IMG/VR virus record: IMGVR_UViG_2778261418_000018
Span: 1 to 36,850 of that record
Length of the DNA: 36,850 bases
Reading direction: 5' to 3' (one strand)
Source of the DNA: a virus
Taxonomy: Duplodnaviria > Heunggongvirae > Uroviricota > Caudoviricetes
Positions within the stretch are counted from its first letter, which is position 1. Every line of letters begins with the position of its first letter. A program made the position numbers and the translations under genes. Below, in pieces: positions 8,952-36,850 of this stretch. Under the pieces are notes generated by a model. That model saw nothing but the letters and a program-made list of their open reading frames with translations. It was not told the DNA's origin and did not search any database.

Positions 8952-8958
8952 TTAACGC

Positions 8959-8988
8959 AAAACCGCTAATGGTCAGATTAGCGGTTTT
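8959..8988 (+). terminator. hairpin terminator after U, overlapping the invertase stop codon
   Basis: AAAACCGCTAAT-GGTCAG-ATTAGCGGTTTT then CATTTTCC; T-run only on the plus strand. Confidence 0.7.
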
Positions 8989-9577: not shown

Positions 9578-9631
9578 ACTGAATCTCCCGTCCAAAAGCG
9601 CAAATCATGCCATGCAGGCCGGAAACGGCCA

Positions 9632-9657: not shown

Positions 9658-9660
9658 ACG

Positions 9661-10638: not shown

Positions 10639-10641
10639 ATT

Positions 10642-11166
10642 ATGCAGCATTTAAAAAACATTAAGTCAGGTAATCCAAAAACAAAAGAACAATATCAGCT
10701 AACAAAGAATTTTGATGTTATCTGGTTATGGTCCGAAGACGGAAAAAACTGGTATGAGGAAGTGAAAAACTTTCAGCCAGACACAATAAAGATTGTTTAC
10801 GATGCAAATAATATTATTGTCGCCATCACCAAAGATGCCTCCACGCTTAACCCTGAAGGTTATAGCGTCGTTGAGGTTCCTGATATTACAGCTAATCGTC
10901 GTGCTGATGATTCCGGTAAGTGGATGTTTAAGGACGGAGCTGTGGTTAAACGGATTTATACGGCAGACGAGCAACAACAGGCCGAATCACAAAAGGCCGC
11001 GTTACTTTCCGAAGCAGAAAGCATTATTCAGCCACTGGAACGCGCTGTCAGGCTGAACATGGCAACAGATGAGGAGCGTAGCCGACTGGAAGCATGGGGA
11101 CGCTACAGTGTTATGGTCAGCCGTGTGGATACGGCAAAGCCAGAATGGCCACAAAAGCCTGAGTAA
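10642..11166 (+). CDS. tail-fibre assembly chaperone (alternative copy, U'-like)
   Basis: 174 aa, clearly similar to 11195..11728 ([22 protein letters not shown]... vs [22 protein letters not shown]...). Confidence 0.8.
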
Positions 11167-11171
11167 AAATT

Positions 11172-11191
11172 AAGGCCCGATATCGGGCCTT
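11172..11191. terminator. bidirectional terminator between convergent assembly-chaperone genes
   Basis: Perfect palindrome AAGGCCCG-ATAT-CGGGCCTT with A/T runs on both sides. Confidence 0.7.
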
Positions 11192-11194
11192 CTC

Positions 11195-11728
11195 TCATTC
11201 TGGTTGTTCTGGAAACGTTACTGGCAGGCTGGAGGTGTCTGTGGATTCGACTTTCTGCGCAAAGAGCATCCACTCTGTTAATTTTTGTTTATTCTCGTCG
11301 GAAATGATGCCCAGCCGTAGCTGTGAGTCCCATAGCTGGGTTTTATCCCTGACGAGCTGTAGCAGGCTTTGCTTTTCATTTTCCGCCTGCTGCCTCTGCT
11401 CTTCCGCGGTATAAGTTCGCTTTACCACTACGCCATCTTTGAACATCCATTTACCCGAAATGTCAGCACGGCGATTTGCTGTAATATCAGGTAATTCAAC
11501 GACGCTTGCGCCTTCCGGATTAATTGCTGAAACATCCTTTTCAATACAAATAATAACGCCGTTATGGTCATAGACCATTTTCAAAGTGTCTGGCTGGAAA
11601 TTCTTTTGTTCCTCATACCAGTTTTTTCCATCATCTGAATAAAGCCATTTGATGTTAAATTGCTTTGTTAGCTGGTATTGCTCTTTTGTTTTAGGGTTGC
11701 CAGCAGTAATGTTTTTTAAGTGCATCAT
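11195..11728 (-). CDS. G: tail-fibre assembly chaperone (expressed copy, P2 G-like)
   Basis: 177 aa directly downstream of H. Confidence 0.8.
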   Translation of the reverse strand: MMHLKNITAGNPKTKEQYQLTKQFNIKWLYSDDGKNWYEEQKNFQPDTLKMVYDHNGVIICIEKDVSAINPEGASVVELPDITANRRADISGKWMFKDGVVVKRTYTAEEQRQQAENEKQSLLQLVRDKTQLWDSQLRLGIISDENKQKLTEWMLFAQKVESTDTSSLPVTFPEQPE

Positions 11729-11730
11729 CG

Positions 11731-13833
11731 TTAAATACTCCCCGCGTTATACCACGTCCCATTAATGCAATACTGAATTGGCCTTGCCTGAGTTGTATCA
11801 ATTAATGCATCACGGTTTCCGTTAACTGAACCCGTAACGACATAACCTGACCTGTCAGACCAGCCGGGGCCATTCCATGTCTGAACAGATGACAGACCGC
11901 CAAGGCGAATACCTGTAATAAACCTTGAGTTACATTCTGCCTGCGTGTATGCACCAACATCTCCCGCAGAGGGTTTGCGGGTCGTGGTGTAAAACTCTGA
12001 CCAGTCAGCCTCAAATCCATAACCATCACGCGCTGAACGATAAAAAATACCGCCGTTCCTGTAATTCACGCGGAACTGTACAGCAGGGCAGCTCCCCGTA
12101 TTCATATTGAAGTGGAGGATTAATGTCGATGCGCCACCAATGTTTGCGTTATAGACCCCGCTATTCCAGTTCCAGCCAACAGCTTTATCATTTCCGACAG
12201 TGCTTCCTGTTTGCCCTAAAGCAAATGCAGGTTGTTGATTTTTCGTGTTGTAGTCTCGTCGCCAGCCAGGAGCGTAAGCATCACCATGATTAATATAAGT
12301 GAATTGAGCGTTATTAATTCCGCCACCGCTGGACGTGCTCGGCGTAGTAACGCGTATGGTCATTGCGCCGCGAGTGCCAATAACTTCCACCACAGCACCT
12401 GCAAGACAAATATTTCCGCAACCTGTATCTGTAATGACCTTATTATTTGCATAAGCCCATGAGCCTTTGCACATCCAGTAAGGATGGTTAAATGCTCCCT
12501 GACTCTCCAGCCACGAAATAAATTGCGCGGTTGTCCAGACCTGACTATCGCCACCAATATTCAGCCATGCGCTATATGCGCGGCAGGCCCCAATATTTTT
12601 GGTGAAGGTATCTTTTCCCGGAATATCTGCGCCGTTCTGGTTTTTCTGTAATGCGCCAGAAGCCTGATTTACCGTTTCCTGTAAACCGAGATATTCGATA
12701 ACAGCGGCAACGGTCGATTTCGCAAGAATATCCCGCCCGACTTTTGTCAGGGTTGCCAGGCTGGCGACATCATTCCCCGTAAAATACGGAAACTTGTCTG
12801 CCGCAGTAGCAAGCCCGGCCAGCGCCGTCAGGGTGGCATCTTTCGGTTGCTTACCCGCAAGCGCGTTAGTCATGGTGGTCGCAAAATTCGGGTCGTTTCC
12901 CAGCGCCGCCGCTAACTCGTTCAGCGTATTCAGTGCGTCAGGTGACGAATCTACAAGGGCGGCAATCGCGGCCATCACATAAGCCGTGCTTGCGATCTGA
13001 GTATTATTAGTACCTTTTGGCGCAGTTGGCGTTGTTGGCGTTCCAGTCAGCGCCGGGCTGTTTAATGGGGCTTTCTTGTTCGTTTCATCCATTACCGCCT
13101 TAACCGCTTTTGGTGTCGCTGCCAGCGTTTCAGACGTGCTGTTGGTTGCATTGCTGAGCTGGACTATCCCTTTTCGTGCCGTCGTGGCGTCCTGAGCGGT
13201 ATATTTTCCGTTAGCCAGGTCATACGCGGCCTTAACCGCTTTCGGCGTTGCGGCCAGCGTTTCAGAATCGCTGTTAGTGGCGCTACTGAGTTGAACAAAG
13301 CCTTTTGCGGTCAGCGAGGCATCCGGGTGACGTCGTGACTGTTCATGCTCTTTCAGTTTGTCATCCACGTAATCCACTGTGGCCATCACCATGGTGTTAT
13401 CCACGGTAAGCGCCACGGTGGCAGTGCTGGATACGGTCAGAATGGTGCGAAATGTTTGTGCACGTCCGGACCCTTCGGCAACGGTTGGCTTGTAACTTTC
13501 GGCAGTATTGCCCACCGCGATTAAATCGCCGTGCTCATCAAATACACCAATTTCCCGGATCCAGAATCCGCCCGTTTCAGGAGGAATAACCAGCTCTGCA
13601 ATAATGCGGTTCTGATGTGTTGCGTCCAGGATGACGCGATTAACAGTATGTCGCCACACCTCATGCACCAGACGGGTCTGCTTACTGTCAGGTGTGGGCA
13701 ATGTACCGCCACCGTCGCCCACGGCCATATGAGTCAGGCGGACAGGCTTACCATCTGGCGCGGCTGCCTGCGCTAATTTTTTTGCACCCGTATCGGTGAT
13801 AACGGTTTTAAATTTTCGTGTTGTGGTACTCAT
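11731..13833 (-). CDS. H: tail fibre protein H (constant N-terminus plus currently joined variable C-terminus)
   Basis: 700 aa; tandem SETLAATPKAVKA repeats; crossover site inside the coding sequence at 12676..12701. Confidence 0.85.
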   Translation of the reverse strand: MSTTTRKFKTVITDTGAKKLAQAAAPDGKPVRLTHMAVGDGGGTLPTPDSKQTRLVHEVWRHTVNRVILDATHQNRIIAELVIPPETGGFWIREIGVFDEHGDLIAVGNTAESYKPTVAEGSGRAQTFRTILTVSSTATVALTVDNTMVMATVDYVDDKLKEHEQSRRHPDASLTAKGFVQLSSATNSDSETLAATPKAVKAAYDLANGKYTAQDATTARKGIVQLSNATNSTSETLAATPKAVKAVMDETNKKAPLNSPALTGTPTTPTAPKGTNNTQIASTAYVMAAIAALVDSSPDALNTLNELAAALGNDPNFATTMTNALAGKQPKDATLTALAGLATAADKFPYFTGNDVASLATLTKVGRDILAKSTVAAVIEYLGLQETVNQASGALQKNQNGADIPGKDTFTKNIGACRAYSAWLNIGGDSQVWTTAQFISWLESQGAFNHPYWMCKGSWAYANNKVITDTGCGNICLAGAVVEVIGTRGAMTIRVTTPSTSSGGGINNAQFTYINHGDAYAPGWRRDYNTKNQQPAFALGQTGSTVGNDKAVGWNWNSGVYNANIGGASTLILHFNMNTGSCPAVQFRVNYRNGGIFYRSARDGYGFEADWSEFYTTTRKPSAGDVGAYTQAECNSRFITGIRLGGLSSVQTWNGPGWSDRSGYVVTGSVNGNRDALIDTTQARPIQYCINGTWYNAGSI
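12676..12701. other. gix/hix-like recombination crossover site (right, inverted)
   Basis: Plus strand TTCCTGTAAACCGAGATATTCGATAA, reverse complement TTATCGAATATCTCGGTTTACAGGAA; inner arm and ~55 bp of adjoining sequence identical to the left copy. Confidence 0.75.
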
Positions 13834-21253: not shown

Positions 21254-22090
21254 TCAGAAGTCAGCCAGCTGGTCGGAGGCTGCGCCCGTTGCGGTGAAGC
21301 GGTTCTGCGGATCGCCGTCCTGCGTGCGCAGTTTTTCCTTCAGTGCTGTCAGCTCTGTGGTCAGTGACGTGATTTTCTGGCGGTCCTGCTGATGGCGGGT
21401 TTCCAGCACATTAAAACGGTCGATAATGTCGGCCTGTGACGTTGCGACGCCTTCCACCGCTTCCTGAATACGGGAAAAACTGGCGTCATCCGCTTTGCGG
21501 CCACGGCCAATAATCCCCATTACGCGGTTAAACCACTGGGTGCCTTCTTCCTGGCGTTGTTCTGCCATTTCGATGATTTCAGACTCGATGGCTTCGGAGA
21601 TAAGCGGCGCTTCACCCTGGACACTGTTGAACGTCATTACCGCCTGACGTTGCTGTGCCGTGAATTTCAGGCGCTCAGTGCCCAGGCTTGCCGGGGTGTC
21701 GGTCATCGCCAGCCCGACCAGGTAGGCGCGCCCGTTAACGGAGAACTGCGGGTGCAGTTCGATACTGGAATAGATTTTCTTGCCGTCCGCGACAAGCTGC
21801 TTCATGCGCTCGGTCGGTTCGATTTCTGCATACAGCGCAGTACGTCCGGCCAGCGGACCTTCCGTAATGTCTTCCGTACTCAGTGCGGTGACATCGCCCA
21901 TTGCGGAAAATTCGCTTGACGGGCATGGCGAGAGATAGTGCTCAACGTTCACGCGGGCAGCGTAAACATCCGGGTTGAAGTTCTCGGCGGCTTCACGCAG
22001 ATGCACCGGACTGATTTCACGGCCATCAACAGTTGATCCGGAGACAGCCACGCGAAACTTTTTGCGGGATGTCTTTTTTTCATTAGCCAT
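21254..22090 (-). CDS. O: capsid scaffold protein O
   Basis: Start moved to ATG at 22090 (MANEKK) with RBS GAGGGG; P2 O-like. Confidence 0.8.
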   Translation of the reverse strand: MANEKKTSRKKFRVAVSGSTVDGREISPVHLREAAENFNPDVYAARVNVEHYLSPCPSSEFSAMGDVTALSTEDITEGPLAGRTALYAEIEPTERMKQLVADGKKIYSSIELHPQFSVNGRAYLVGLAMTDTPASLGTERLKFTAQQRQAVMTFNSVQGEAPLISEAIESEIIEMAEQRQEEGTQWFNRVMGIIGRGRKADDASFSRIQEAVEGVATSQADIIDRFNVLETRHQQDRQKITSLTTELTALKEKLRTQDGDPQNRFTATGAASDQLADF

Positions 22091-22244
22091 AGTTTTTGCC
22101 CCTCTGACTGGTTCTTCAGTCATGATGGCAAAGCGTAACAGGCTGATACAAAGGGCTTTTGTTGTAAGAAAACGGCCAGAACAGGGGGTTAAGGAGAACA
22201 GTTTCGCGCGCGGGTAATCTTCCTGTAATTACTCAGGGGGAGCA

Positions 22245-23996
22245 ATGATTCAGGACGCTTTTGTGCGCCAGCGTGCGCGGCAACTTTACTGGCAGGGTTA
22301 TCCGCCCGCAGAAATATCACGTCTGATGGGAATAAACCCGAACACGATTTATGCGTGGAAAAAACGCGACCAGTGGGATGAAACGCCACCCGTGCAGCGT
22401 GTCACGCAGTCCATCGATGCGCGCCTCATCCAGCTTACTGAAAAACAGAATAAAACAGGCGGTGACTTTAAGGAAATAGACCTGCTGACCCGGCAGCTTA
22501 AAAAACTGCATGATGGCCAGCCGGATGCGACGGTCACAGGAAAGAAAGGCCGGGCGAAAAAACTCAAAAATCATTTCACGCCGGAACAGATTGCCGCACT
22601 GCGGGAAAAAATCATCAGCAGGCTGGAGTGGCATCAGCGGGGCTGGTTTGACTCCCTGACCCTTTGCAGGGAAGCCGGGATACGTAACAGGATGATCCTG
22701 AAATCCCGACAGATTGGGGCGACCTGGTATTTTGCACAGGAAGCACTGCTGATGGCGCTGCGTGACGATGTGGCGCAACCTTACCAGCGTAACCAGATTT
22801 TTTTGTCTGCGTCGCGTCGTCAGGCGTTCCAGTTTAAAAGCATTATTCAGAAGGCTGCGGCTGAAGTTGATGTGGAGTTGAAAGGGGGTGATAAAATCAT
22901 CCTCTCCAACGGCGCAGAGCTGCATTTTCTCGGCACTTCTGCTGCGTCGGCACAGTCCTATACGGGCAATTTTTATTTTGATGAATTTTTCTGGGTCAGT
23001 CGCTTTGCTGAACTGCGCAAGGTGGCTGGCGCTATGGCAACCCTCAGCGGACTGCGGCGCACCTACTTCTCCACGCCATCCACCGAAACGCACGAGGCAT
23101 ACGCCTACTGGAACGGCGACCGCTGGAACGAGAAAAAGGCCACGCATAAACGCCAGCGTTTTTCTGTGGACTGGAAAACGCTGCATAACGGGCTTATCTG
23201 CCCTGACCGGACGTGGCGGCAAATTGTCACGCTGGAAGATGTGGTTAATCACGGCTGGAAACACACCGATATTGATGAAATTCGTGATGAAAACACCGAA
23301 GACGAGTTCCTCAATCTCTATATGTGTGAGTTTGTCCGCGAAGGGGAATCGGCATTTAACCTGAATATCCTGATTGGCTGCGGCGTTGACGGATACGACG
23401 ACTGGAAAGACTGGAAACCTTTTGCTCCCCGCCCGATGGGAAATCGTCCGGTATGGATTGGGTATGACGCAAACGGCAGCAGTGGCAACGGCGACAGCGG
23501 CGCTGTGTCCGTGGTGGTTCCTCCGGCTGTTCCTGGTGGCCGTTTTCGAACGGTTGAGACGCGACGCGTTCAGGGGCTGGAGTTTGAAGAACAGGCCAGA
23601 GTCATTGAAGAGTTCACGTATCGCTACAACGTGGAACACATCGGCATTGATGTGACGGGCGGGAACGGGGAGGCTGTTTATCAGATAGTGAAACGGTTTT
23701 TCCCTGCAGCTATTCCGTACACCTTCACGCTGTCATCAAAACGGTCGCTGGTACTGAAAATGCTGCAAATAATGCGTGCCGGGCGGTGGGAATACGATCG
23801 CGCCGAACGCGAGCTGGTCGCGGCCTTTAACGCCGTGCGTAAGGTGAAAACACCGGGCGGCTTTATCACTTACGAAACGGACCGCGCGAGGGGGATCAGC
23901 CACGGCGACCTTGCGTGGGCAACCATGCTTGCTGTCATTAACGAACCAATTGGCGGCGAAGGAGAAAACGAGCGTTTCACGGTTATGGAGTTCTGA
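22245..23996 (+). CDS. P: terminase large (ATPase) subunit P
   Basis: 583 aa, divergent from O as in P2. Confidence 0.85.
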   Translation: MIQDAFVRQRARQLYWQGYPPAEISRLMGINPNTIYAWKKRDQWDETPPVQRVTQSIDARLIQLTEKQNKTGGDFKEIDLLTRQLKKLHDGQPDATVTGKKGRAKKLKNHFTPEQIAALREKIISRLEWHQRGWFDSLTLCREAGIRNRMILKSRQIGATWYFAQEALLMALRDDVAQPYQRNQIFLSASRRQAFQFKSIIQKAAAEVDVELKGGDKIILSNGAELHFLGTSAASAQSYTGNFYFDEFFWVSRFAELRKVAGAMATLSGLRRTYFSTPSTETHEAYAYWNGDRWNEKKATHKRQRFSVDWKTLHNGLICPDRTWRQIVTLEDVVNHGWKHTDIDEIRDENTEDEFLNLYMCEFVREGESAFNLNILIGCGVDGYDDWKDWKPFAPRPMGNRPVWIGYDANGSSGNGDSGAVSVVVPPAVPGGRFRTVETRRVQGLEFEEQARVIEEFTYRYNVEHIGIDVTGGNGEAVYQIVKRFFPAAIPYTFTLSSKRSLVLKMLQIMRAGRWEYDRAERELVAAFNAVRKVKTPGGFITYETDRARGISHGDLAWATMLAVINEPIGGEGENERFTVMEF

Positions 23997-25042
23997 TGAG
24001 CAGAAAAAATAAAAAAGTGCGCATGAGTTCACGCATTGATCTCGCTGATGCGCTCAGGAAAGAATCATCGCTCAGTGCATTCACATTTGATGGTCCTTAT
24101 CGCCTGACCGGGCATGACCTGCTGGACAATATGTACTGTGCTGATAACGGGCGGTGGTATGAAACCCCGGTGGACTGGTACGGTCTGGCAAGAGCAGCCC
24201 GGCAAACGTCCTGGCATCAGTCTGCGCTTTACTTTAAGCGCAATGTATTACTCGGTTGCTACATCCCGCACCCGCTGCTTTCCCGGCAGGATTTCTCGGC
24301 GCTGGCGCTGGACTGGTTTGTGTTCGGTAACGCATTCCTTGAGCTTCGAAGCAATATGCTCGGCGAACCGCTTAAATTACGGCACGCACTGGCGAAATAC
24401 ATGCGACGCGGAAGCGATCTTGAATCATGGTGGTATGTGCAGGATGGCAAGGACGCGTTTCAGTTTCGCCCTGGCAAAGTGTGCCACCTGATGAATCCGG
24501 ACATTAACCAGGAAATTTACGGCATGCCGGAATATCTTGGCGCATTACTCTCGGCCAGCCTGTCTCATTCGGCGGACATGTTCAGAAAACTGTATTACGA
24601 CAATGGATCCCACGCCGGGTGCATCATCTACATCGGTGCAGCGCAGGTAAACCGCGAAAGCATGGACTCCCTGAAAGAAACGTTACAGGGGGCACGTGGT
24701 GGTGGTGCGTTTAAAAACGTGCTCATCCATGCGCCCAACGGGGGCAAAGAGGGGGTGCAAATTTTGCCGTTCCAGCAGATCACCGCAAAGGATGAGTTCA
24801 TGAATGTTAAGGCGGCATCCCGTGATGATGTGCTGGCTGCGCACCGCGTTCCGCCGCAACTGATGGGGGCGATGCCGGGCGAAAAAAGCGCGTTTGGTGA
24901 TGTGGAGAAGGCCGCGCGGGTTTACGCAATTAACGAGCTGATGCCCGTCATGGAGGCCATGAAGCACATCAATGACTGGCTTGGCGAAGAGGTGATCTGC
25001 TTTAACCCTTACGCACTGTTAGACACCCAGCCCACATCCTGA
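23996..25042 (+). CDS. Q: portal protein Q
   Basis: 348 aa, downstream of P, adjacent to cos region as in P2. Confidence 0.85.
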   Translation: MSRKNKKVRMSSRIDLADALRKESSLSAFTFDGPYRLTGHDLLDNMYCADNGRWYETPVDWYGLARAARQTSWHQSALYFKRNVLLGCYIPHPLLSRQDFSALALDWFVFGNAFLELRSNMLGEPLKLRHALAKYMRRGSDLESWWYVQDGKDAFQFRPGKVCHLMNPDINQEIYGMPEYLGALLSASLSHSADMFRKLYYDNGSHAGCIIYIGAAQVNRESMDSLKETLQGARGGGAFKNVLIHAPNGGKEGVQILPFQQITAKDEFMNVKAASRDDVLAAHRVPPQLMGAMPGEKSAFGDVEKAARVYAINELMPVMEAMKHINDWLGEEVICFNPYALLDTQPTS

Positions 25043-25069
25043 CGCGCTTCGCTTGTCTGCTGCTTCGCC

Positions 25070-25092
25070 GGGGCATAAAAAATTTATGCCCC
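25070..25092. repeat. perfect hairpin just downstream of Q
   Basis: GGGGCATAAA-AAA-TTTATGCCCC. Confidence 0.5.
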
Positions 25093-25465
25093 GACTCTCC
25101 AGCTCCTGTATCAATCAGATAATTTCACGACGCTTTCCTGCTTATTGCCATCATCGACAGTCAGACTCTTACGCAATCCCACCGCGTTGACTGCATGTTC
25201 TCGCCGTCTCAGTGCGATTTTGACGGCCTTACCTTTCACCCCATCAAATCAAAAGCCCTCACGTCTTTTTCACGCTCAGCGTGAGAAATACAGCCATTCT
25301 GTTGTGTCGCTGCGACATCGTTCAGGGGATGCTATTTACCCCCTGAAACGCGGGCTGTTCCCCCGTCACCTGCGCACAGGAAAAACGCGTTTTTTGTGCA
25401 CGCACGGATCCTTGACGGATCCAGCCGCCATGCGGGCCGGAAGGGCAAAAAGTCGTTCAAAAAAA

Positions 25466-25495
25466 TTGTGCAAATTTGTGCACTTTTGTGCAAAG
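25466..25495. repeat. three 10-bp-phased direct repeats TTGTGCA(A/C)
   Basis: ATTGTGCAAA / TTTGTGCACT / TTTGTGCAAA at 25466, 25476, 25486; a fourth TTGTGCAC at about 25394. Confidence 0.6.
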
Positions 25496-25498
25496 AAA

Positions 25499-25521
25499 TG
25501 CCCCTCAAATTGAGGGGCATT
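25499..25521 (-). terminator. hairpin terminator ending the A / ATPase / protease transcription unit
   Basis: ATGCCCCTCA-AAT-TGAGGGGCAT, followed on the minus strand by TTTCTTTG; 14 nt after the protease stop. Confidence 0.75.
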
Positions 25522-25534
25522 ATGTCTTGAAGGA

Positions 25535-27760
25535 TTACGAACGAATAGGAATTGATGTTTGCGGTTGAATTGGCACGAGCACCTGATTATAAGTACGTAA
25601 AATTTCGTTATACAGGTCTTGGTGCTTTGATGCCTTAATGGTAATTATAAGAGCATACTTGATTTTTTCTGCCTTATGGCTGGCTATGCTTGCACCGGCC
25701 TCACGAGCGTTATAATGAATGTCAAATACAGGATTTTTTAGAGTTGAACCTAGCATGTTCTTCGAATTATGTAAGACGGTCTCCCACTTGCCCATGTCAG
25801 AACGTCGCTCACTTTCAGTTGAATATTTGGCCAGTTCAAAGAATCCCTTGGTTTCAGCATTTTGTTTTCCGTCTTTGATTTTTGAATCATTTGGCCGGAA
25901 TGTCACTTCCAAACCAGCTTTTGTATAGGACGCTGGGTCTTGTGGATCAGTGGTTGTTGCATAACAGAAAGTTGCCGCTAAGTTTATTCTACCTTTCAAG
26001 CCACCTTCAGGTATTGGAAGAGAAGCGCGTAAGTATTTTCCTGGTTTCAATTCACCTTGGTAGACGATACGGGCAACACCATCAGGGCTGACTATAATGT
26101 CGTTCAAGTCTTCAGGCAGTTTTCCCCAGCCAACTTCTGTACAAGGATGATCAAGCTGTTTTGACGCATGAATTAACAAAGCTTTGATTGCTAGTAGGCT
26201 CAAATCGTTCCCTAAAATTGCCCGAACACCAACAGCTGCTCGTAAGGCGTAAGGAGAGGCAAAGCTTGTTCCTAGCTGGGGTATGATTACAGGCTTCTTA
26301 CCTTTACCTAAAACATGAAAGTACTCGTCTGTGTCACCACCAAACGCAACTAAATCCGGTTTCATCACGCCAGGACTTCTGCCTGGCCCAATGGCGCTAT
26401 ATGGTGCTCGTTTCCATTCCGTATCATTAACTGTATCACAAGCACCAACAGCAAGAGCATTAACGCAATCGGCTGGTACTTGAATTCTTGCATTACCAGA
26501 CTTGCGATCCATTTCTCCATTGTTGCCAACAGCAACAGTCATTAATGTTTCACCATCACTTAACAAATCATCAATAACGGAAGTCCATGCATGAACTTCC
26601 GTATCTTCAATTGGTAGGTCTGGACCTAAACTTAGATTGATAAACTGATACTGGCGAGACAACAATACCTCTTCAATAAAGCCCAAAGTTCGATATAGTT
26701 CCAGCGGATCTTCTTGGCAGGTCTTGTTGTCCAAAACTCTTAAGTTATCAATATAAGAGTATGGTCTTTTCGCTTCCGATTTATTACTTATTGGTCCAAA
26801 TAAAAAGGCTGAAGACACAGCTAAACCATGCTCTAAACCGTCTGGATCATCCTCTGCATGATCGTCCAAAACTCTATAGGATTTTAACCATGGCGATATA
26901 GCGTGCTCTGATGGTAAACCACCATCAAGAATCGCAACTTTTATTTCTGAAGATACGGGGCCCTCAGCAGGTAATTTACACTGAGCTAAAGGACCGTAGT
27001 TCCTTTGTATTGGTCTAATCCCACGCAATCTTGGAACCGGTCTTATTACTCGTACAAATGTAAATTTCGCAAGCTTACTAATAGTAATTCTATCGGCCTG
27101 GATTGGCACGAACCATAATGTACCAGCGGTAAAAGCTAATGAAGTATGTACTTTGATGTTCAAATTTGATGCAAACTGAACAAATTGTTGCTGAACCAAG
27201 TCTTGTTCATTATCTGGCAGTAAATGAACACCAACCTCAAAATACGAAGAATCCTGCTCACCAATGGTAATAATACGCTCTTCGGGTAAATAGGCATCGA
27301 ACCGTTCTATGCGTGCAAAATCAATCGCTTCGTCAGAAAACTCTTTGAGTCCTGACACCCAATGAGGTAACTCTTTGAAGGATTCTCTTTTACCAGCAAC
27401 AAACATTTGTGTCGTAGTTACTTCTGACACAGTAACTTTTCGCTTCCAGCTTTGAGGCGTAATTTTTACCGTCCTGCTGCCAATAGACGTTAACCCGGTA
27501 GACTTAAGCATTTTTGCAGGAAAAAAAGAGCGTGCAATATAGCTTGGATTCAACGTCAACTTAGCCACAGCATAATCATAAGGACATGCCTGACTGGGTA
27601 AATCATCAAAATTTTCTATAGTAGATGCAATTTGCGGCAATAAACGTTGTTTCGATTCGTAAAGAGAATAAACCTCAGCTTTTCCGGGCACTCTTTTAGG
27701 ACCAGGAATATCGCTGGTTAATAATTCGCCGCGTCCAATCAGAAAATTAGTTTTCGCCAT
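25535..27760 (-). CDS. S8 family subtilisin-like serine peptidase with large N- and C-terminal extensions (candidate IetS-like)
   Basis: Catalytic motifs in order VAILDGG (Asp), HGLAVSS (His), AVGNNGE (oxyanion Asn), GTSFASP (Ser); RBS AGGAG 8 nt before ATG. Confidence 0.8.
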   Translation of the reverse strand: MAKTNFLIGRGELLTSDIPGPKRVPGKAEVYSLYESKQRLLPQIASTIENFDDLPSQACPYDYAVAKLTLNPSYIARSFFPAKMLKSTGLTSIGSRTVKITPQSWKRKVTVSEVTTTQMFVAGKRESFKELPHWVSGLKEFSDEAIDFARIERFDAYLPEERIITIGEQDSSYFEVGVHLLPDNEQDLVQQQFVQFASNLNIKVHTSLAFTAGTLWFVPIQADRITISKLAKFTFVRVIRPVPRLRGIRPIQRNYGPLAQCKLPAEGPVSSEIKVAILDGGLPSEHAISPWLKSYRVLDDHAEDDPDGLEHGLAVSSAFLFGPISNKSEAKRPYSYIDNLRVLDNKTCQEDPLELYRTLGFIEEVLLSRQYQFINLSLGPDLPIEDTEVHAWTSVIDDLLSDGETLMTVAVGNNGEMDRKSGNARIQVPADCVNALAVGACDTVNDTEWKRAPYSAIGPGRSPGVMKPDLVAFGGDTDEYFHVLGKGKKPVIIPQLGTSFASPYALRAAVGVRAILGNDLSLLAIKALLIHASKQLDHPCTEVGWGKLPEDLNDIIVSPDGVARIVYQGELKPGKYLRASLPIPEGGLKGRINLAATFCYATTTDPQDPASYTKAGLEVTFRPNDSKIKDGKQNAETKGFFELAKYSTESERRSDMGKWETVLHNSKNMLGSTLKNPVFDIHYNAREAGASIASHKAEKIKYALIITIKASKHQDLYNEILRTYNQVLVPIQPQTSIPIRS

Positions 27761-27783
27761 ACATACTCCTTATCTATGCTGTA

Positions 27784-28905
27784 TTACATTTTTTGACTGT
27801 ATTTTCTAATTGTATCCCTACTGACTCCGGTTAAGTCTGATATGGCATGCTGGGATAATTTAGAATTTCTTTTTAGAGTAACTGCAATTTCTTTACGTTC
27901 ATTCCTGTCTAATTCTGATAAACCATCTTTAATGAACGACCCAATCAACTCTTCATCTGAGGAAATACCTAAAGCGACCGAACGTCGGAATTTGTTGATA
28001 GAACGCTCAATATTACTAAAAGATTCATTTTTGAACATAATAGCCAGTAGATCTATCCAACGTGCAAAAATCGCGTAGTCGGGACCCGAAAAGCGTTTAA
28101 TTGCTTCTTTAATACTTTCGCTATCTGGCTTCTCAAAATTGAGCACTAAATCAAAACGTCTCCATAGTGCTGGATCAATCAACTCAGCGAAGTTAGTTGC
28201 AGCAAGTAGCAAACTAGAAGACGGCCATTCGTCAACCTCCTGGAGTATCACGGTAACAAGTCTTTTTAATTCTCCAACATCAGAATCATCACTTCTCTTT
28301 TTGGCGATTGAATCAATTTCATCTAACAGAAGAACGCACGGCCCTTTCTTCGCAAAATCTAGAGCTGCCCGAAGGTTATTTCCGCTTTTGCCCAGATAGC
28401 TGCTCATTACTGCCGTTAAATCAAGAACGTAAAAAGGAACCCCTAATTTCTGAGCTAACCAGCTTGCCGTAAGTGTTTTACCTACACCCGGAGGGCCAAC
28501 AAAAATGGCAGAGCGTGTTGGTTGTAAGCCGAGAGTCTTGAGGCGATCGATGTGCTTCCGCTCAAGAATAATTTGATCCAGTGAGTCTTCTATCTGACTG
28601 GACAGTAGAGGTTTGCTCACAATCTTTTCATTTGGTGCTTTAAGCAAGGTAAGCCTTGACTCCTCGTCCACAGGCATGGTTTGAGGCAGCGCTTGTTTTG
28701 GTGCGGTAACCTTACGCAGGCTTTGTGCAGGCTTTTGCGGTTTATTTCGTAGATAAAGATCAAGCTGCTCGGATAGAGCAGGCATAGTTTCCCGATATTT
28801 ACGCACCAAGCGAGCGACATATAACCGAACGTCATCATACTGTTCAGTTATTACCAGTCTAACTAGTTGGGCTAAATCTGACTGAATACCACCTAAGTCG
28901 CCCAT
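27784..28905 (-). CDS. AAA+ ATPase (classic clade) with possible C-terminal HTH (candidate IetA-like)
   Basis: Walker A GPPGVGKT, Walker B VLLLDEID, sensor-1 LLLAATN, RRFD; C-terminal LSQHAISDLTGVSRDTIRKY. Confidence 0.8.
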   Translation of the reverse strand: MGDLGGIQSDLAQLVRLVITEQYDDVRLYVARLVRKYRETMPALSEQLDLYLRNKPQKPAQSLRKVTAPKQALPQTMPVDEESRLTLLKAPNEKIVSKPLLSSQIEDSLDQIILERKHIDRLKTLGLQPTRSAIFVGPPGVGKTLTASWLAQKLGVPFYVLDLTAVMSSYLGKSGNNLRAALDFAKKGPCVLLLDEIDSIAKKRSDDSDVGELKRLVTVILQEVDEWPSSSLLLAATNFAELIDPALWRRFDLVLNFEKPDSESIKEAIKRFSGPDYAIFARWIDLLAIMFKNESFSNIERSINKFRRSVALGISSDEELIGSFIKDGLSELDRNERKEIAVTLKRNSKLSQHAISDLTGVSRDTIRKYSQKM

Positions 28906-28949
28906 CTTAACTGTAACCTCTTGATTTTAAGTGAATTGAAAAAGCATTT

Positions 28950-28990
28950 AACTGGACTATTTATAGTATTGCACTTTTTTATCAAACAGG
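28950..28990 (-). promoter_or_regulatory. putative sigma-70 promoter for the cargo cassette
   Basis: Minus strand TTGATA - ~15 nt - ATAAAT inside a 180-bp AT-rich spacer between A stop and the ATPase start. Confidence 0.3.
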
Positions 28991-29085
28991 GAAGAGGAAT
29001 ACTATATGAAATTACAGTGTGCCCCATGGAACGTCCTTACCATGTCTAAACTCTACCTTCATACAATTGATGATTTCTTTCTTGG

Positions 29086-31869
29086 TTATTTTTTCTTCTC
29101 GCTATTGCCTTTGTCCTGCAACAGACCCGCCTTGTGACGTGCGCGTTCAGTGGTTTCATTGATTCTCTGTGCGTGCTCTGCGTCACGGATGGCGCGCAGC
29201 ATGTCAGAAAGCACGGTAACGGGGGGGTTCATGGTGTTCTGGTCCTGCTGAAGTGTGGATACCAGGCGTGCGGCGGCTTCGGGGTCTGATGCCCCCAGCT
29301 GTTCCAGATAGCTGGCGACCGGGTTATGGCGGATCTCCGTGCTGCTTACGCCGTGATTACGGCTCAGGCGCTGCCAGAGCTGCGTGATTCGGCTGTCCGG
29401 GCGGGTATCCGGTTTGCGTACAATTTCAAATCCCTGCGGTGCAATGATGCTGCCGTCAACGTACAGGCTGCCGCCCCGTAACAGGTGCTGCATCTGCTGT
29501 TCACCGATATGCAGGCCGAGAGATTCAGCAGATTCCCGCCATTCTTTAGCGAGTAATTCGTGGCTATCAGGCAAAGGCCGCTGCTGTTTGCGGCTCTGTG
29601 TCCAGCTCTGCATTTCATCACTGCTGTTTTTTGCCTGTTTGTCACGCAGCGAACGCATCAGCGCCCGGCGTTCGTGCCGTTTCAGTGAGCGCATCCATTC
29701 ATCCACATCAACGCCGTCAGGAAGCTGCGGCCACGGTGCTGGCCGTTCTTCCGGCTGTTCTGTCCCGTTGTTGTCCGTTTCCTGTACACGGGGACAGTTA
29801 TTGCCACGAGTCCAAGGGGCGGCAGGGCCGCCCTGAAGGTCAAAACCATTTTCGCGGGCGCTGTCTTCCGCTTCCGGTTTACGTCTTACCAGCTTCCAGT
29901 TATCCGGATGTGTGCACACACGGGAAGACTCCCCGATGAGTGGTGACCAGATCCCGTAAATCTGTACGCTCTGTTCGCCGTAATCGTTCAGCTCATCTGC
30001 GAGGTCGTAGGCGGTGCGAATCAGGTAGTCTTTGCGTGGAACAAGTACGCCGCCCTGTTTTTCAATGTAGGAGGCAAAACACCCGGCATCAGCGGCAGCG
30101 AGCACTGCATCCATTGCGTCATCCTTCAGCCGTTGCGGGCCTTCCGGGTTGCGTGCCATCTGGCTGGCAAGGCGGCGCAGTTCACGCCACACCTGACGGG
30201 AGGGGATGCCAAAGAACTGGAACTGGCGGACCCGGTGAAGGCGCGCCCAGCCGATGGCGCGCTCCACGCTCTCGGCCATTGATTTTCCGGTTTCGTGGTC
30301 AACGCGTGGCTTGCCCGTTTTCGGGTCGATACCATCCACGGCGCGGCTGTCCAGGTTCTTTCCGATGTAGGTGGCGATGTAGCTGGTTGGCGTGCCTTTT
30401 GAGCCGTCGACGTACTCCGCTTTAAAACGCGGAGTTATGTCATCGCCCAGCTCGTGGCGGTCTTCCTGAATGGCAATATCGCAGACGTGGGACACGATGG
30501 TTTCAATCTCGTCCGGATGTGCAAAGACCATCATATGCCAGTGCACAGTGCCGTCATGGTGAGGCTCCACCGTGCGGATGCCATACCAGCGAAGACCGTC
30601 GCGGTTCAGTTTTTTGCGGACCGCCGCAAAAAACGTGTTAACCAGGTAATCGCTGGAGTCGCGCATGGTGGCCCCGTTCCATTTGGGATTCGGATGACCG
30701 TTCTCCGTTGTTGCGTGGTATTTTGACGGGCAGGTGACAGTCAGAAACACCGCTCTGTCGCCACGGGCTTCGGCCTGAAGTTCCAGCCCCTTCATGGTGG
30801 CCATCATTTCTGCCTTACGGTGAACCGGGTTACTTACTCCCGCGTAATACACTGTATCGAGATCAATCGTGAACCCGTCTTCGTTTTCCAGCATGAAACT
30901 TTTCAGGAAATCGCGTGTTTTCTCGCGCTGTGCGCGAAACTCGCTTAACGCGTCCTGGCTCAGATAGGGCGATGTTTTTCTGGAAACCAGACAGGCGGCG
31001 CGGAGTTGTTCTTCTCTCCACTTGCAACGTAACAGCCACAGTTTGCGTTTCCACCATTCTGCACAGGTCAGGCGAAGGATTGCGCCCGGCAGCAGCTCCG
31101 TGTCCGGTTCGTTCCTCCGGTCTTTGTCTGTTGTCAGTGCGTCATAATGCGGAGGCATGGCGTGCAGGTGTAACGCCATGCGGGCCAGCATCTGATACGC
31201 CTTCAGCGTTACATCCATGGTCAGCTCGCCATCAGTCGCGCCAAAGCCATCGCAGAGTTTTTCGAAGGTGCTGCTGAACATCGCCGCCGTCATGGTGGCC
31301 AGCGTCTGTATCTGGTGTTTGTTGAGCTGCGGCAGGTAAAGCAAATCATCCAGGCGTTCGCGTCCGGCAAGGGAGCGATAACCCGGTGTCAGCCAGCGGT
31401 GGTCGGTGCGGTCCAGACGTTCGAATATTTTGCGCAGGGTTCCGCGCGCGTAGCGTTCAGCCTGCCAGCTCTTTTTGCCTTTCTGACGATCGGCTTCCTG
31501 CTTCTTGCGCAGAAAAGAGAGGTGGCGGCTCAGAGGTTCACGCAGATAAACGGGAAGCACCTTCAGTGTGGCAAAAGCACGGGCCACCGGGTCTTGTTCT
31601 GTTGCCTGACGCTTGCTGATGATGCTTTGTGTCAGCTTTTCACGCTGTCCGGCTTCCTCAAGGGATGCCATGAGTTTTTTACCCACGGTGGATTGTGCGA
31701 AAAAGGCTTCCTCCTTCGCTTCCTGTTCTTCCAGGGCCTTTTTGTCTGCTTCAAGGTAGTAACGGATGGCGCGTTGCATGTCGGTTTCAGTTTCCTGCCT
31801 GCGCTCCGTAAATCTGGCCGGATCAATGGCTGGCCGTGGTTCATTCCAGCTCCATGCAAACTCACTCAT
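29086..31869 (-). CDS. A: replication initiation endonuclease A (rolling-circle)
   Basis: Large basic protein in the P2 A position; start at ATG 31869 overlapping upstream stop (ATGA). Confidence 0.8.
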   Translation of the reverse strand: MSEFAWSWNEPRPAIDPARFTERRQETETDMQRAIRYYLEADKKALEEQEAKEEAFFAQSTVGKKLMASLEEAGQREKLTQSIISKRQATEQDPVARAFATLKVLPVYLREPLSRHLSFLRKKQEADRQKGKKSWQAERYARGTLRKIFERLDRTDHRWLTPGYRSLAGRERLDDLLYLPQLNKHQIQTLATMTAAMFSSTFEKLCDGFGATDGELTMDVTLKAYQMLARMALHLHAMPPHYDALTTDKDRRNEPDTELLPGAILRLTCAEWWKRKLWLLRCKWREEQLRAACLVSRKTSPYLSQDALSEFRAQREKTRDFLKSFMLENEDGFTIDLDTVYYAGVSNPVHRKAEMMATMKGLELQAEARGDRAVFLTVTCPSKYHATTENGHPNPKWNGATMRDSSDYLVNTFFAAVRKKLNRDGLRWYGIRTVEPHHDGTVHWHMMVFAHPDEIETIVSHVCDIAIQEDRHELGDDITPRFKAEYVDGSKGTPTSYIATYIGKNLDSRAVDGIDPKTGKPRVDHETGKSMAESVERAIGWARLHRVRQFQFFGIPSRQVWRELRRLASQMARNPEGPQRLKDDAMDAVLAAADAGCFASYIEKQGGVLVPRKDYLIRTAYDLADELNDYGEQSVQIYGIWSPLIGESSRVCTHPDNWKLVRRKPEAEDSARENGFDLQGGPAAPWTRGNNCPRVQETDNNGTEQPEERPAPWPQLPDGVDVDEWMRSLKRHERRALMRSLRDKQAKNSSDEMQSWTQSRKQQRPLPDSHELLAKEWRESAESLGLHIGEQQMQHLLRGGSLYVDGSIIAPQGFEIVRKPDTRPDSRITQLWQRLSRNHGVSSTEIRHNPVASYLEQLGASDPEAAARLVSTLQQDQNTMNPPVTVLSDMLRAIRDAEHAQRINETTERARHKAGLLQDKGNSEKKK

Positions 31870-32255
31870 GGCTGGTATCCCGTCACGTGCTGCCACTCCA
31901 GCGAGAAGAGGGTGGAAAGGCGGTTAAATTCAGCGGTGTATTCACTCAGCGAGGCACACCCGCCAGCAGTGCGATGCGCCAGCATTGCCGCAAATATGGA
32001 GGCCGGGGAGTCGTAATACGCCAGCAGTGATTCGCCGTGTGGTGTCAGGCAGTGCAACGCCAGCCCATGTGGTGTGAAGTCCACGCGGTAGCAGTCGTCT
32101 ACTGTGAAATAAAGGGTGTCTGCATTCTCCGGTTTTGTGGTGCGTGCTCTGTTGTCACGACCACGGATGTAGAGATCAAATAATCCCTGAAGAACGGGAG
32201 CCATACGGGTGTCCTGTGTGCGCACCCATCTTGTGAAGTCATGAGCGTCAATCAT
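31866..32255 (-). CDS. hypothetical early protein (129 aa)
   Basis: ORF translationally coupled to A. Confidence 0.5.
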   Translation of the reverse strand: MIDAHDFTRWVRTQDTRMAPVLQGLFDLYIRGRDNRARTTKPENADTLYFTVDDCYRVDFTPHGLALHCLTPHGESLLAYYDSPASIFAAMLAHRTAGGCASLSEYTAEFNRLSTLFSLEWQHVTGYQP

Positions 32256-34395: not shown

Positions 34396-34800
34396 ATGAA
34401 AAATGATATTGGTCAGCGGTTGCGTGAGGAAAGGGAAAGATTGGGACTTAGTCAAGTTGCTATGAGCGACATTGGTGGAGTCAAAAAGCTAACTCAGCTT
34501 AGATATGAGAAAGGAGATAGCTTTCCTGATGCTGCGTATTTGGCAGCGCTGTCTCGTTTTGGCCTTGATGTTCAGTATGTTGTGTTGGGAATTCACTCAC
34601 CTGAAACTTATAACGATGATGAGCAGGAGCTGATTACTCGCTTTCGAGCAGCTTCGTTAGATGTGAAAAACGCCGTGATCGGGGCTTTAAAAGGTGCGAT
34701 CAGTGAAAAGGAAACTCAGCCATCAGGACGTGAGTTAAATATTTCTGGTGGTAATAACCGTATCGCTGGTCGTGACTATAACGAAACTAAGGGTAGGTGA
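34396..34800 (+). CDS. immunity repressor, XRE/CI-type HTH
   Basis: IGQRLREERERLGLSQVAMSDIGGVKKLTQLRYEKG HTH; position upstream of int as for P2 C. Confidence 0.8.
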   Translation: MKNDIGQRLREERERLGLSQVAMSDIGGVKKLTQLRYEKGDSFPDAAYLAALSRFGLDVQYVVLGIHSPETYNDDEQELITRFRAASLDVKNAVIGALKGAISEKETQPSGRELNISGGNNRIAGRDYNETKGR

Positions 34801-35466: not shown

Positions 35467-35495
35467 TCTTACTTGAGCTAAATTGAGGTAATGAT

Positions 35496-35848: not shown

Positions 35849-36850
35849 ATGTCGGTTCGTAAGATTCCATCAGGTAAATGGCTTTGCGAATGTTATCCCT
35901 ACGGGGCATCGGGAAAACGCATTCGTAAACAGTTTGCGACAAAAAGTGAGGCGCTCTCTTATGAGCGCCGTTTAATGAATAGTAGAGTTGGAGAGGAGTT
36001 TCAAGATGGTTCTGGTCCTCGTCTTTCTGAGTTGATTGCTCGTTGGTTTGAGATGTACGGTAAAACCTTGTCCTCTGGTGCAGAGCGCAAAGTCAAACTT
36101 GAGGCGATTTGTTCCAGGCTGGGAGATCCATTTGCTTCTCAGTTTGACAAAAATATGTTTGCTACTTATAGGGAAAGAAGGCTATCAGGAGAATGGAATC
36201 CCAAGGGGAAGAAAAAACTTAGTGAAGCAACCGTTAATCGCGAGCAGTCATATCTACATGCTGTTTTTGCCGAACTGAAGCGACTTGGGGAGTGGTCTGG
36301 TGAAAACCCCCTGACTGGTATTCGCAAGTTTCGTGAGGAAGAAAAGGAACTGGCGTTTCTGTATGTAGATGAGATTGAACGCCTTCTGATTGCGTGTGAT
36401 GAGTCACGGAATAAAGATTTGGGGGTTGTTGTCCGTATTGGGCTTGCGACTGGTGCTCGGTGGAGTGAAGCAGAAGGATTAAAGCAATCTCAAGTACTGC
36501 CCGGTCGAATCACATTTGTTAAAACTAAAGGAAAGAAGAACCGCACTGTACCGATTTCACCTCAATTGCAGGCTATGCTTCCTAAAAAACGAGGAGCGCT
36601 ATTTTCACCATGTTATGAGGCTTTTGACGCTGCAATTAAGAGAGCGAAGATCGAGCTTCCTGATGGGCAATTAACTCATGTGCTACGTCACACTTTTGCC
36701 AGTCATTTTATGATGCGGGGCGGAAATATTCTTGTGTTGCAAAAAATACTGGGGCATAGCGATATAAAAATGACTATGCGTTATGCGCATTTTGCTCCAG
36801 GTCATTTAGAGGCTGCTGTTGAATTGAACCCTTTTGACAATAGAGGGTAA
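35849..36850 (+). CDS. int: tyrosine integrase (P2 Int family)
   Basis: 333 aa; catalytic residues in ATGARWSE (Arg), HVLRHTFAS (His-x-x-Arg), MRYAH (Tyr); stop codon at window end. Confidence 0.9.
   Translation: MSVRKIPSGKWLCECYPYGASGKRIRKQFATKSEALSYERRLMNSRVGEEFQDGSGPRLSELIARWFEMYGKTLSSGAERKVKLEAICSRLGDPFASQFDKNMFATYRERRLSGEWNPKGKKKLSEATVNREQSYLHAVFAELKRLGEWSGENPLTGIRKFREEEKELAFLYVDEIERLLIACDESRNKDLGVVVRIGLATGARWSEAEGLKQSQVLPGRITFVKTKGKKNRTVPISPQLQAMLPKKRGALFSPCYEAFDAAIKRAKIELPDGQLTHVLRHTFASHFMMRGGNILVLQKILGHSDIKMTMRYAHFAPGHLEAAVELNPFDNRG

Follow-up and report, generated by a model that had tools for sequence, protein, structure and literature searches.

An IetAS-type ATPase and protease pair in the gpA–gpQ hotspot of a P2-like prophage

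We analyzed a 36,850-nucleotide stretch of viral DNA (IMG/VR record IMGVR_UViG_2778261418_000018, Caudoviricetes; hereafter, the window), in which two adjacent minus-strand reading frames had been proposed to encode an IetAS-like AAA+ ATPase and S8 subtilase carried as prophage cargo. Both reading frames were as described. The upstream gene, ietA (27784..28905, minus strand), encodes an AAA+ ATPase of 373 aa, presumed to be the antitoxin and regulator, and after a gap of 23 bp on the same strand, ietS (25535..27760, minus strand) encodes a cytoplasmic S8 subtilase of 741 aa, presumed to be the toxin and effector. Reading of the sequence also bore out a separate ribosome-binding site for each gene, AAGAGG located 11 nt 5′ of the ietA ATG and AAGGAG located 6 nt 5′ of the ietS ATG. 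Of 80 loci collected from diverse bacteria, 78 were evaluable, and in every one of them the gene directly 5′ of ietS, in the same orientation, was ietA. The GC content of the cassette was 41.6%, compared to 52.3% in the rest of the window, which is consistent with acquired cargo. Downstream of the cassette, 14 nt 3′ of the ietS stop codon, a terminator-like hairpin (AUGCCCCUCAA-UUU-UUGAGGGGCAU, followed by UUCUUUG; 25497..25521, minus strand) was observed; the region 25480-25540 on the minus strand folded with −23 kcal/mol (z=−5.7 against shuffled sequences).

Profile searches were then used to assign the two proteins to a family. IetA matched the PADLOC IetA model PDLC02196 (E=1e-77, 260 bits), with residues 9-372 aligned to positions 5-370 of the 374-position profile, and three more PADLOC IetA models matched with E values from 2e-72 to 7e-41. 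Similarly, IetS matched the PADLOC IetS model PDLC02197 (E=2.9e-51; residues 36-726 on positions 38-733 of 749) as well as six more IetS models. Both proteins were thus covered over their full length by profiles of the family named in the original prediction. In Pfam, IetA matched AAA (PF00004, E=2.6e-30, residues 134-258) and IetS matched Peptidase_S8 (PF00082, E=2.5e-19, residues 271-546). The PHROG families 3757 and 3964 also matched the pair over the full length, with E=4.9e-255 for IetS against phrog_3964. The top NCBIfam matches were “anti-phage ATPase IteA” (E=5e-66) for IetA and “S8 family anti-phage peptidase IteS” (E=6e-39) for IetS. These matches were full length, yet they fell below the equivalog cut-offs (223 vs 510 bits for NF042959, and 134 vs 900 bits for NF042956), indicating that the window pair belongs to the same family as a diverged subtype. 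This also explains why the RefSeq names go no further than “AAA family ATPase” and “S8 family peptidase”. The architecture of approximately 740 aa was kept in IetS homologues down to 33% identity. The two genes are, therefore, an IetAS ATPase-plus-protease pair of toxin-antitoxin-like type, and an ordinary, already catalogued copy: the window IetA is identical to WP_000502620, and IetS is WP_001556981 with one amino acid substitution.

The cassette lies in the P2 old/tin hotspot, a variable position adjoining cos, with replication gene A on one side and portal gene Q on the other. The right border of the hotspot is a gpA-like replication endonuclease (29086..31896, minus strand; phrog_91, “nicking at origin of replication”, E=9e-267), whose counterpart in E. 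coli M1/5 is annotated as “replication endonuclease”. On the left, the flanking gene encodes the gpQ portal (23996..25042, plus strand; phrog_68 portal, E=3e-152), and the cos-proximal P2-like backbone between the portal gene and the cassette (25043..25499) showed 92-96% identity to P88-like/Xuanwuvirus phages by megablast. The pair is thus carried between gpA and gpQ of a complete P2-like prophage, in agreement with the proposed status as prophage cargo. No gene besides ietA and ietS was present in the hotspot of the window, and a PADLOC scan of eight other accessory prophage ORFs gave no defence match, with only weak helix-turn-helix (HTH) noise on the repressor. At megablast sensitivity, the cassette was not found in 50,697 phage records, in which the match was confined to the cos-proximal 456 bp. 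By contrast with the hotspot flanks, which occurred in 1450 of 5426 complete E. coli genomes, the whole region was present in 42 only; the cassette itself was found at ≥99% identity in 43 of the 5426.

This locus has been catalogued previously. Rousset et al. (2022) defined the gpA-gpQ locus as a defence hotspot, found validated defence systems there, and recorded ietAS. The rows of their Table S5A for this locus (AAA/HTH_50 plus Peptidase_S8; WP_000502620 and WP_001556981) share with the window a position adjoining cos and flanked by gpA and gpQ, as well as the same architecture, with IetA identical and IetS differing by one residue. In their Table S5B, the label “ietAS (Gao et al, 2020)” is given to system #7, which occurs 400 times; however, the representative printed for this entry is of another subtype, whose IetA shows 43% identity to that of the window. 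E. coli M1/5 differs from the window in having an extra 174-aa gene between the portal gene and ietS. In addition, an allele of 93% identity was found in three decayed P2-like remnants, in which gpA and the portal gene survive as fragments and only ietAS, gpD, and ogr are left besides. The locus thus illustrates that P2-like prophages, decayed remnants included, retain modules such as ietAS.

These data bear on whether the pair could belong to a different ATPase-protease system, in which the ATPase would be a CBASS accessory protein of the TRIP13 type, or in which a morphogenetic phage protease would be paired with its chaperone. The ATPase did give weaker PADLOC matches to TRIP13 (E=2e-15) and DolB (E=4.5e-6), but the IetA and IetS profiles were better by at least 60 orders of magnitude and over the full length, and the hotspot holds two genes only. 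A CBASS TRIP13/HORMA module, in which a TRIP13-like ATPase would be accompanied by HORMA, a CD-NTase, and an effector, was rejected on the same comparison and because no other gene accompanies the pair. As for a morphogenetic role, P2-type head genes, namely, the gpO scaffold (21254..22123), terminase, and portal genes, are located elsewhere in the window, and at megablast sensitivity no sequenced P2-like phage carried the cassette, indicating that it does not belong to the core functions of the phage. We regard such a system as extremely improbable, and a merely superficial likeness to IetAS is effectively refuted by the profiles, the gene content, and the phage-record search.

Next, we analyzed the domains of IetA, which comprises a three-helix bundle (residues 3-53), a disordered linker (55-95), an AAA+ domain (~100-312), and an HTH region (~334-372). 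The motifs noticed originally were located at residues 137-144 (Walker A, GPPGVGKT; 28474..28497, minus strand), 191-198 (Walker B, VLLLDEID; 28312..28335, minus strand), and 232-238 (sensor-1, LLLAATN). In homologue alignments, G137 and P139-K143, the latter including the Walker A lysine K143, as well as D195 and E196 of Walker B, were invariant. The sensor-1 residue N238 was invariant as well, and so were R249 and R250 (28156..28161, minus strand), located just downstream of it in the sequence WRRFD, which, from established knowledge of classical-clade AAA proteins, we take to be the arginine fingers of the second region of homology. IetA falls in the unfoldase clade together with FtsH, p97, PAN, and Vps4. 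In pore loop 1, however, the family does not keep the canonical aromatic residue (consensus SSLLG, here SSYLG), so that substrate threading by IetA is not assured. No solved IetA structure was found by sequence search of the PDB, which returned just Cdc48/p97 matches.

A possible C-terminal HTH had also been suggested for IetA. At the level of Pfam this suggestion fell short, since only sub-threshold HTH matches were obtained, although many of them fell on the same residues (HTH_11, E=0.0013, below the cut-off). The segment (LSQHAISDLTGVSRDTIRKY, residues 350-369; 27799..27858, minus strand) is, on the other hand, nearly invariant in the family alignment, and helices were predicted by AF2 at residues 334-347, 352-359, and 363-372, forming a predicted helix-turn-helix. 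Furthermore, one member of the IetA family matched HTH_50 (E=4.3e-7), and the segment matched a DeoR HTH in the PDB with E=0.029. Taken together, IetA is an AAA+ protein of the classical clade whose C-terminal HTH is conserved.

In IetS, the four subtilase motifs of the original prediction were found at residues 275-281 (VAILDGG), 311-317 (HGLAVSS), 410-416 (AVGNNGE), and 497-503 (GTSFASP), within an S8 catalytic domain spanning residues 271-546 (26123..26950, minus strand). Loss of the catalytic triad had been named as an observation that would speak against the assignment; D279 (26924..26926), H311 (26828..26830), the oxyanion N413 (26522..26524), and S499 (26264..26266, all minus strand) were scored in 66 homologues of 31-66% identity, and all four were invariant. 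Neither a signal peptide nor a transmembrane-like segment was found in IetS, with a maximum Kyte-Doolittle 19-residue mean of 1.54.

The regions flanking the catalytic domain were analyzed with an AF2 model of IetS (pLDDT 91.6, pTM 0.93). In the model, the N-terminal region (residues 1-268; 26957..27760, minus strand) is formed by two alpha/beta modules, N1 (~15-124) and N2 (~150-241), and a lower-confidence linker (242-270) leads to the catalytic domain. With its beta-alpha-beta-beta-alpha-beta order, N2 resembles a subtilase propeptide. Profile and Pfam searches with the N-terminal 268 residues gave nothing significant, and no Inhibitor_I9 match, indicating that the propeptide resemblance is structural only. 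The C-terminal extension, which had been estimated at ~250 aa, was shorter, at ~195 aa (547-741), and residues ~550-741 (25538..26113, minus strand) were modeled as a jelly-roll-like beta-sandwich. The matches obtained with the model were to propeptide-like and jelly-roll folds. Thus, the N-terminal part of IetS appears propeptide-like and the C-terminal domain appears to be a beta-sandwich, as judged from the predicted structure. A sequence search of the PDB found no solved IetS structure and returned generic subtilisin matches (E ~1e-4).

Upstream of ietA, a cassette-borne, promoter-like element (TGCAATACTATAAATAGTCC; 28954..28973, minus strand) was identified. It consists of an extended −10 (TGn plus AATACT), 5 nt, and then a TAGTCC box (28954..28959), and its conservation across the family suggests a role as a promoter or operator. 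Of 77 family members, 65 had the TGn/−10/TAGTCC composite at −66 to −69 relative to the ietA start, compared to 0.11 hits expected from shuffles, and the element was also conserved in an alignment of close relatives. Since a generic sigma-70 scan of the region gave sites no more numerous than chance, the promoter proposal is based on this cross-family conservation. The element contains a palindrome, ACTAT-AA-ATAGT (28956..28967), and the strict form ACTAT-N-ATAGT was considered as a family-wide operator. It was dropped, and the composite was preferred, because just two of the other 76 loci contained the palindrome.

Published data on homologues indicate how such a pair may act. Later work credits Gao et al. 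(2020) with reporting IetAS as anti-phage, and Yamamoto et al. (2009) with the original ietA/ietS, a module for stability and incompatibility on pTiC58, an Agrobacterium Ti plasmid. On pTiC58, the protease is the toxin and the ATPase the antitoxin. The same roles were assigned to SgiAT of SGI1 (Huguet et al. 2016). Homologues protect both E. coli and B. subtilis against phages; this activity depends on the protease, and construction of ietA mutants failed. A Bacillus homologue showed Abi-like behaviour triggered by SPbeta yosG. In E. coli, ietAS of ECOR52 alone gave weak, limited anti-phage protection; the cloning primers of this tested system have no match in the window. Protection and toxicity by the window allele would be expected from homology to the tested relatives.

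On this evidence, the cassette probably is an autonomous moron, an IetAS system of an AAA+ ATPase and an S8 subtilase in the P2-like gpA-gpQ hotspot, with toxin-antitoxin-like abortive infection as its most likely mode of action. We counted against this explanation the shortfall at the NCBIfam equivalog cut-offs, the 43% IetA identity to the Rousset representative, and the ECOR52 primer mismatch. The weak activity published for E. coli ietAS and the unconserved pore-loop aromatic were further points.

In the proposed mechanism, an extended −10 promoter belonging to the operon itself would drive its transcription in the lysogen. IetS would be a cytoplasmic, zymogen-like protease that is toxic if unrestrained, with the toxicity taken from homologues and the zymogen-like character from the structural model. 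IetA, presumably a hexameric remodeller of the classical clade, would restrain IetS in an ATP-dependent manner, the antitoxin role resting on genetics of homologues, and would probably autoregulate the operon through binding of its C-terminal HTH to the conserved TAGTCC box. Upon infection, a phage protein may disturb the control by IetA, by analogy to the toxicity triggered by a phage gene in the Bacillus homologue only. The freed IetS might then cleave cellular and/or phage proteins, so that growth and phage production stop. A more specific form can be put forward tentatively, in which an “AAA+-latched zymogen” is formed: the uncleaved propeptide-like module would gate IetS, the IetA ring would control this latch, and the HTH would bind the TAGTCC box at the promoter start site, thereby coupling the dosage of the pair to the availability of IetA. 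The searchable literature contains no such model for IetAS.

The same features can be read in the opposite direction, with IetA as a sensor-activator that recognises a phage protein and, by ATP-driven unfolding, strips the propeptide-like module from IetS to turn the protease on. The module that the model suggests ahead of the catalytic domain, the position of IetA in the unfoldase clade, and its intact arginine fingers and Walker motifs would suit such activation. However, three homologous systems show the ATPase as antitoxin and the protease as toxic alone, ietA mutants of a homologue could not be built, and the pore-loop aromatic is not conserved; we consider activation by IetA rather unlikely.

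If ietAS were mainly an addiction module that maintains the prophage or its remnant through post-segregational killing (PSK), any anti-phage effect here would be incidental or absent. IetAS and SgiAT were first found on a plasmid and on a genomic island, respectively, as stabilisation or toxin-antitoxin modules, the 93%-identical allele persists in decayed remnants, and protection by the ECOR52 system is limited. Nevertheless, the hotspot is occupied by validated defence systems, homologues protect two bacterial hosts, and SgiAT expressed from its own promoter had no PSK effect. A mainly addictive function is unlikely in our view, although addiction and defence are not mutually exclusive.

Compared with known systems, the window pair resembles IetAS (Gao_Iet in DefenseFinder) in its gene order, ietA preceding ietS in the same orientation, in its ATPase, a classical AAA+ protein of ~370 aa that carries an HTH at the C terminus, and in its protease, an S8 enzyme of ~740 aa extended at both ends by regions specific to the family and with its catalytic residues intact. 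It is unlike IetAS in being of a diverged subtype. SgiAT (S026/S025) of Salmonella genomic island 1, compared by its description, is likewise a mobile-element-borne AAA-ATPase antitoxin with a subtilisin-like toxin, shown to be a toxin-antitoxin pair in E. coli; unlike the window pair, it is carried on an integrative mobilisable island, not a prophage, and the work on it concerned maintenance of the island rather than defence against phages. ietHAS (Liu-DS4; NAR 2026, PMC13069673) has the same ietAS core, with a protease needed for defence and an antitoxin-like ietA, but requires a third gene, ietH, for a SNF2-family helicase, which the hotspot of the window lacks. P2 old and tin, the reference genes for this hotspot, occupy the same position in the phage genome and have the same presumed role, exclusion of other phages by a prophage, whereas their proteins and mechanisms are unrelated.

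As a discovery, the locus adds little: either PADLOC or DefenseFinder would label it IetAS, and Rousset et al. (2022) already list its proteins at this hotspot. What is added here is the AlphaFold model of IetS, the clade and HTH of IetA, and the conserved extended −10 and TAGTCC box, whose distance from ietA is fixed. A compact, prophage-borne E. coli allele could be a convenient model for how IetAS works, to which the propeptide-like module, the jelly-roll domain, the HTH-bearing AAA+ protein, and the conserved promoter- or operator-like element would be useful additions. The promoter-like element with its TAGTCC box, conserved at 65 of 77 loci, is a concrete new handle on the system.

The window is a complete P2-like prophage, in which we recognized an integrase (35849..36850), a repressor-like HTH protein (34396..34800), the gpA replication endonuclease (29086..31896), the portal (23996..25042), the large terminase (22245..23996), the gpO scaffold (21254..22123) and gpD, with tail genes lying between gpO and gpD. 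The gpA and portal genes flank the ietA-ietS cassette, which therefore sits between genes A and Q beside cos, the same position that is occupied by old and tin in phage P2. The region between P2 genes A and Q is a defence hotspot (Rousset et al. 2022, PMC9122126), so the cassette is prophage cargo, in agreement with the original prediction. Table S5A of that study lists at the A-Q locus "AAA/HTH_50 + Peptidase_S8: WP_000502620 + WP_001556981", and in Table S5B the arrangement Peptidase_S8 / AAA takes 7th place, with 400 occurrences and the annotation "ietAS (Gao et al, 2020)". IetA of the window is 100% identical to WP_000502620, and IetS differs from WP_001556981 by one residue. The pair is thus an already known IetAS family member at a known hotspot, the same proteins having been tabulated previously. 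In E. coli M1/5, an additional gene for a 174-aa hypothetical protein (WP_000236495; 18944-19468 of the M1/5 locus) separates the portal gene from ietS. This is the third gene of the arrangement in Rousset's table; it is absent from the window, where the corresponding 492 bp (25043-25534), next to cos, are non-coding.

Both genes lie on the minus strand, ietA (27784..28905) encoding a 373-aa AAA+ ATPase and ietS (25535..27760) a 741-aa S8 protease. The 23-bp gap, the Shine-Dalgarno-like sequence ahead of each ORF and all ATPase and subtilase motifs were found as first read from the sequence. IetA matched Pfam AAA (PF00004, E=2.6e-30, residues 134-258) and IetS matched Peptidase_S8 (PF00082, E=2.5e-19, residues 271-546); GC content was 41.6% in the cassette versus 52.3% in the remainder of the window. 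The proposed relationship to IetAS was borne out by full-length PADLOC-DB profile matches of IetA to PDLC02196 (E=1e-77) and of IetS to PDLC02197 (E=2.9e-51), with the next, unrelated families trailing by over 60 orders of magnitude. Each protein also matched a PHROG family over its full length (phrog_3757 for IetA and phrog_3964 for IetS). In NCBIfam, IetA best matched "anti-phage ATPase IteA" (E=5e-66), while the top model for IetS was "S8 family anti-phage peptidase IteS" (E=6e-39). The scores of both were well under the equivalog cut-offs, which explains the bland RefSeq names and indicates that the pair is a diverged subtype of the family, not a new kind of system. Rousset's printed representative differs, its IetA being only 43% identical to that of the window, and ECOR52 ietAS is a different allele, as judged by the published cloning primers.

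Next, we analyzed conservation across the family. IetS-like proteins formed 1621 clusters at 50% identity with E<=1e-3 and 542 with E<=1e-30, and the ~740-aa architecture was maintained down to 33% identity. The catalytic triad (D279, H311 and S499), whose conservation bore directly on the original prediction, was invariant across 66 diverse members, as was the oxyanion N413. We compared 80 loci in genomes of many bacterial groups, Proteobacteria for the most part; in all 78 that had enough upstream sequence, ietA lay directly upstream of ietS on the same strand. In IetA, alignments showed invariant Walker A K143, Walker B D195/E196, sensor-1 N238 and arginine fingers R249/R250, and a near-invariant C-terminal segment, LSQH..GVSRDTIRKY. 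The pore-loop-1 position is aromatic in threading AAA+ unfoldases. This position is Tyr170 in the window (28396-28398) but Leu in at least 90% of members (consensus MSSLLG), suggesting that IetA may act without canonical substrate threading.

The AlphaFold2 model of IetS was confident (pLDDT 91.6, pTM 0.93) and gave longer alignments with pro-enzymes than with mature enzymes, including 308/355 residues of unautoprocessed pro-subtilisin E. By the order of secondary structures, residues ~150-241 would form a propeptide-like fold, followed by a lower-confidence linker (residues 242-270) leading into the catalytic domain; sequence profile searches gave no match for the N-terminal region. Neither a signal peptide nor a membrane segment was found in the IetS sequence, indicating a cytoplasmic protease. 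The IetA model was moderate (pLDDT 74.8), with an N-terminal three-helix bundle, a disordered linker, the AAA+ module and helices at the C-terminus that would fit an HTH. Its nearest folds were FtsH/FtsHi, p97/VAT, Vps4, PAN/Mpa and spastin, each a remodeller of the classical AAA+ clade. A PDB sequence search returned no solved structure of IetA or IetS.

Upstream of ietA, a block with TGCAATACTATAAATAGTCC (28973..28954) was conserved among close relatives. A composite element was present in 65 of 77 family members (75 with distinct upstream sequences; the window, at 28954-28973, and loci L002-L081), always 66-69 nt ahead of the ietA start codon, versus 0.11 expected in shuffled sequence. In this element, TGn is followed by a hexamer resembling a -10 box (GACAAT, GAAAAT or GATAAT) and, after a spacer of 4-7 nt, by a TAGTCC-like box. 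We interpret it as a putative extended -10 promoter carried along by the cassette; the box, conserved and placed at the start site, would be a candidate operator to which the similarly conserved HTH of IetA might bind. This element, though modest, is new in this analysis. A generic promoter scan of the region was uninformative, and a strict palindrome, considered as a family-wide operator, failed across the family loci. A strong hairpin followed by a U-rich tract was located 14 nt past the ietS stop (-23 kcal/mol, z=-5.7 against shuffles). With the promoter-like element and this hairpin, the cassette thus resembles a self-contained transcription unit, in keeping with a moron that is expressed in the lysogen.

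Among homologues, the protease acts as the toxin and the ATPase as its antitoxin, as described for pTiC58 IetAS in the ietHAS paper (PMC13069673) and for SgiAT of SGI1 (Huguet et al. 2016). Defence against phage requires the protease, and ietA mutants were impossible to construct (PMC13069673). Bacillus IetAS shows abortive-infection behaviour, in that SPbeta yosG, when expressed, harms only those cells that carry IetAS, and E. coli ECOR52 ietAS is weak by itself and synergizes with Zorya II against T3. We propose that IetA would spend ATP holding a zymogen-like IetS harmless and might also tune expression of the pair; a phage product would then upset this control, and proteolysis by IetS would arrest the cell. 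The reverse scheme, with IetA switching IetS on through removal of the propeptide-like module, is possible, although it fits the genetics less well than restraint of IetS by IetA. The anti-phage mechanism was still declared unknown in 2026 (PMC13069673), and the hints from structure and regulation offer starting points for work on it.

The distribution of the cassette was then examined. At >=99% identity it occurred in 43 of 5426 complete E. coli genomes, chromosomal in every case. The flanking portal and gpA sequences were found in 1450 genomes but the entire region in only 42, and sequenced P2-like phages shared only the cos-proximal 456 bp with the hotspot of the window. Together, this is the pattern that marks variable cargo in a hotspot that is itself conserved. 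ISKpn26 disrupts the S8 gene in E. coli E06, and 43% of the cassette is left in 7-27 20A. In UTAK-22 and 08-4377, IS1203 is inserted within the 24000-30500 region, and the cassette matches as a single unbroken piece. In three Enterobacter-type contigs (L082, L083 and L086; ~6388-13289), decayed P2-like remnants adjoin cpxRAP and retain no more than fragments of gpA and of the portal gene along with ietAS, gpD and ogr; their IetA is 93% identical to that of the window, and ietS is split in L086. This suggests that the module is kept, or resists loss, once the prophage decays. Such persistence supports a mainly addictive role for ietAS, a less likely alternative that is compatible with defence.

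Other features of the prophage were also observed. A Gin/Cin/Pin-type invertible tail-fibre segment (8978-12701), probably a host-range switch, comprises a serine invertase (8978..9595, minus strand; Resolvase + HTH_7) adjoining a pair of 89-nt inverted repeats (9632-9720 and 12613-12701; 93% complementary). The repeats bracket alternative tail-fibre C-termini together with genes for tail-fibre assembly, on both strands (9763..10638+, 10642..11166+, 11195..11728- and the 3' part of 11731..13833-). A second cargo site may lie at 34816-35843 (low GC, 0.39-0.44), flanked by the repressor-like gene and the integrase, with two ORFs of unknown function that had no match in Pfam or PADLOC, one of 216 aa (phrog_5825; weak "membrane protein" moron match) and one of 115 aa (phrog_2950). 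Near the left end of the window, where GC is low, a 131-aa ORF (880-1275; phrog_27544, unknown function) that lies beyond the P2 core genes we could recognize showed weak "membrane associated protein" moron matches.
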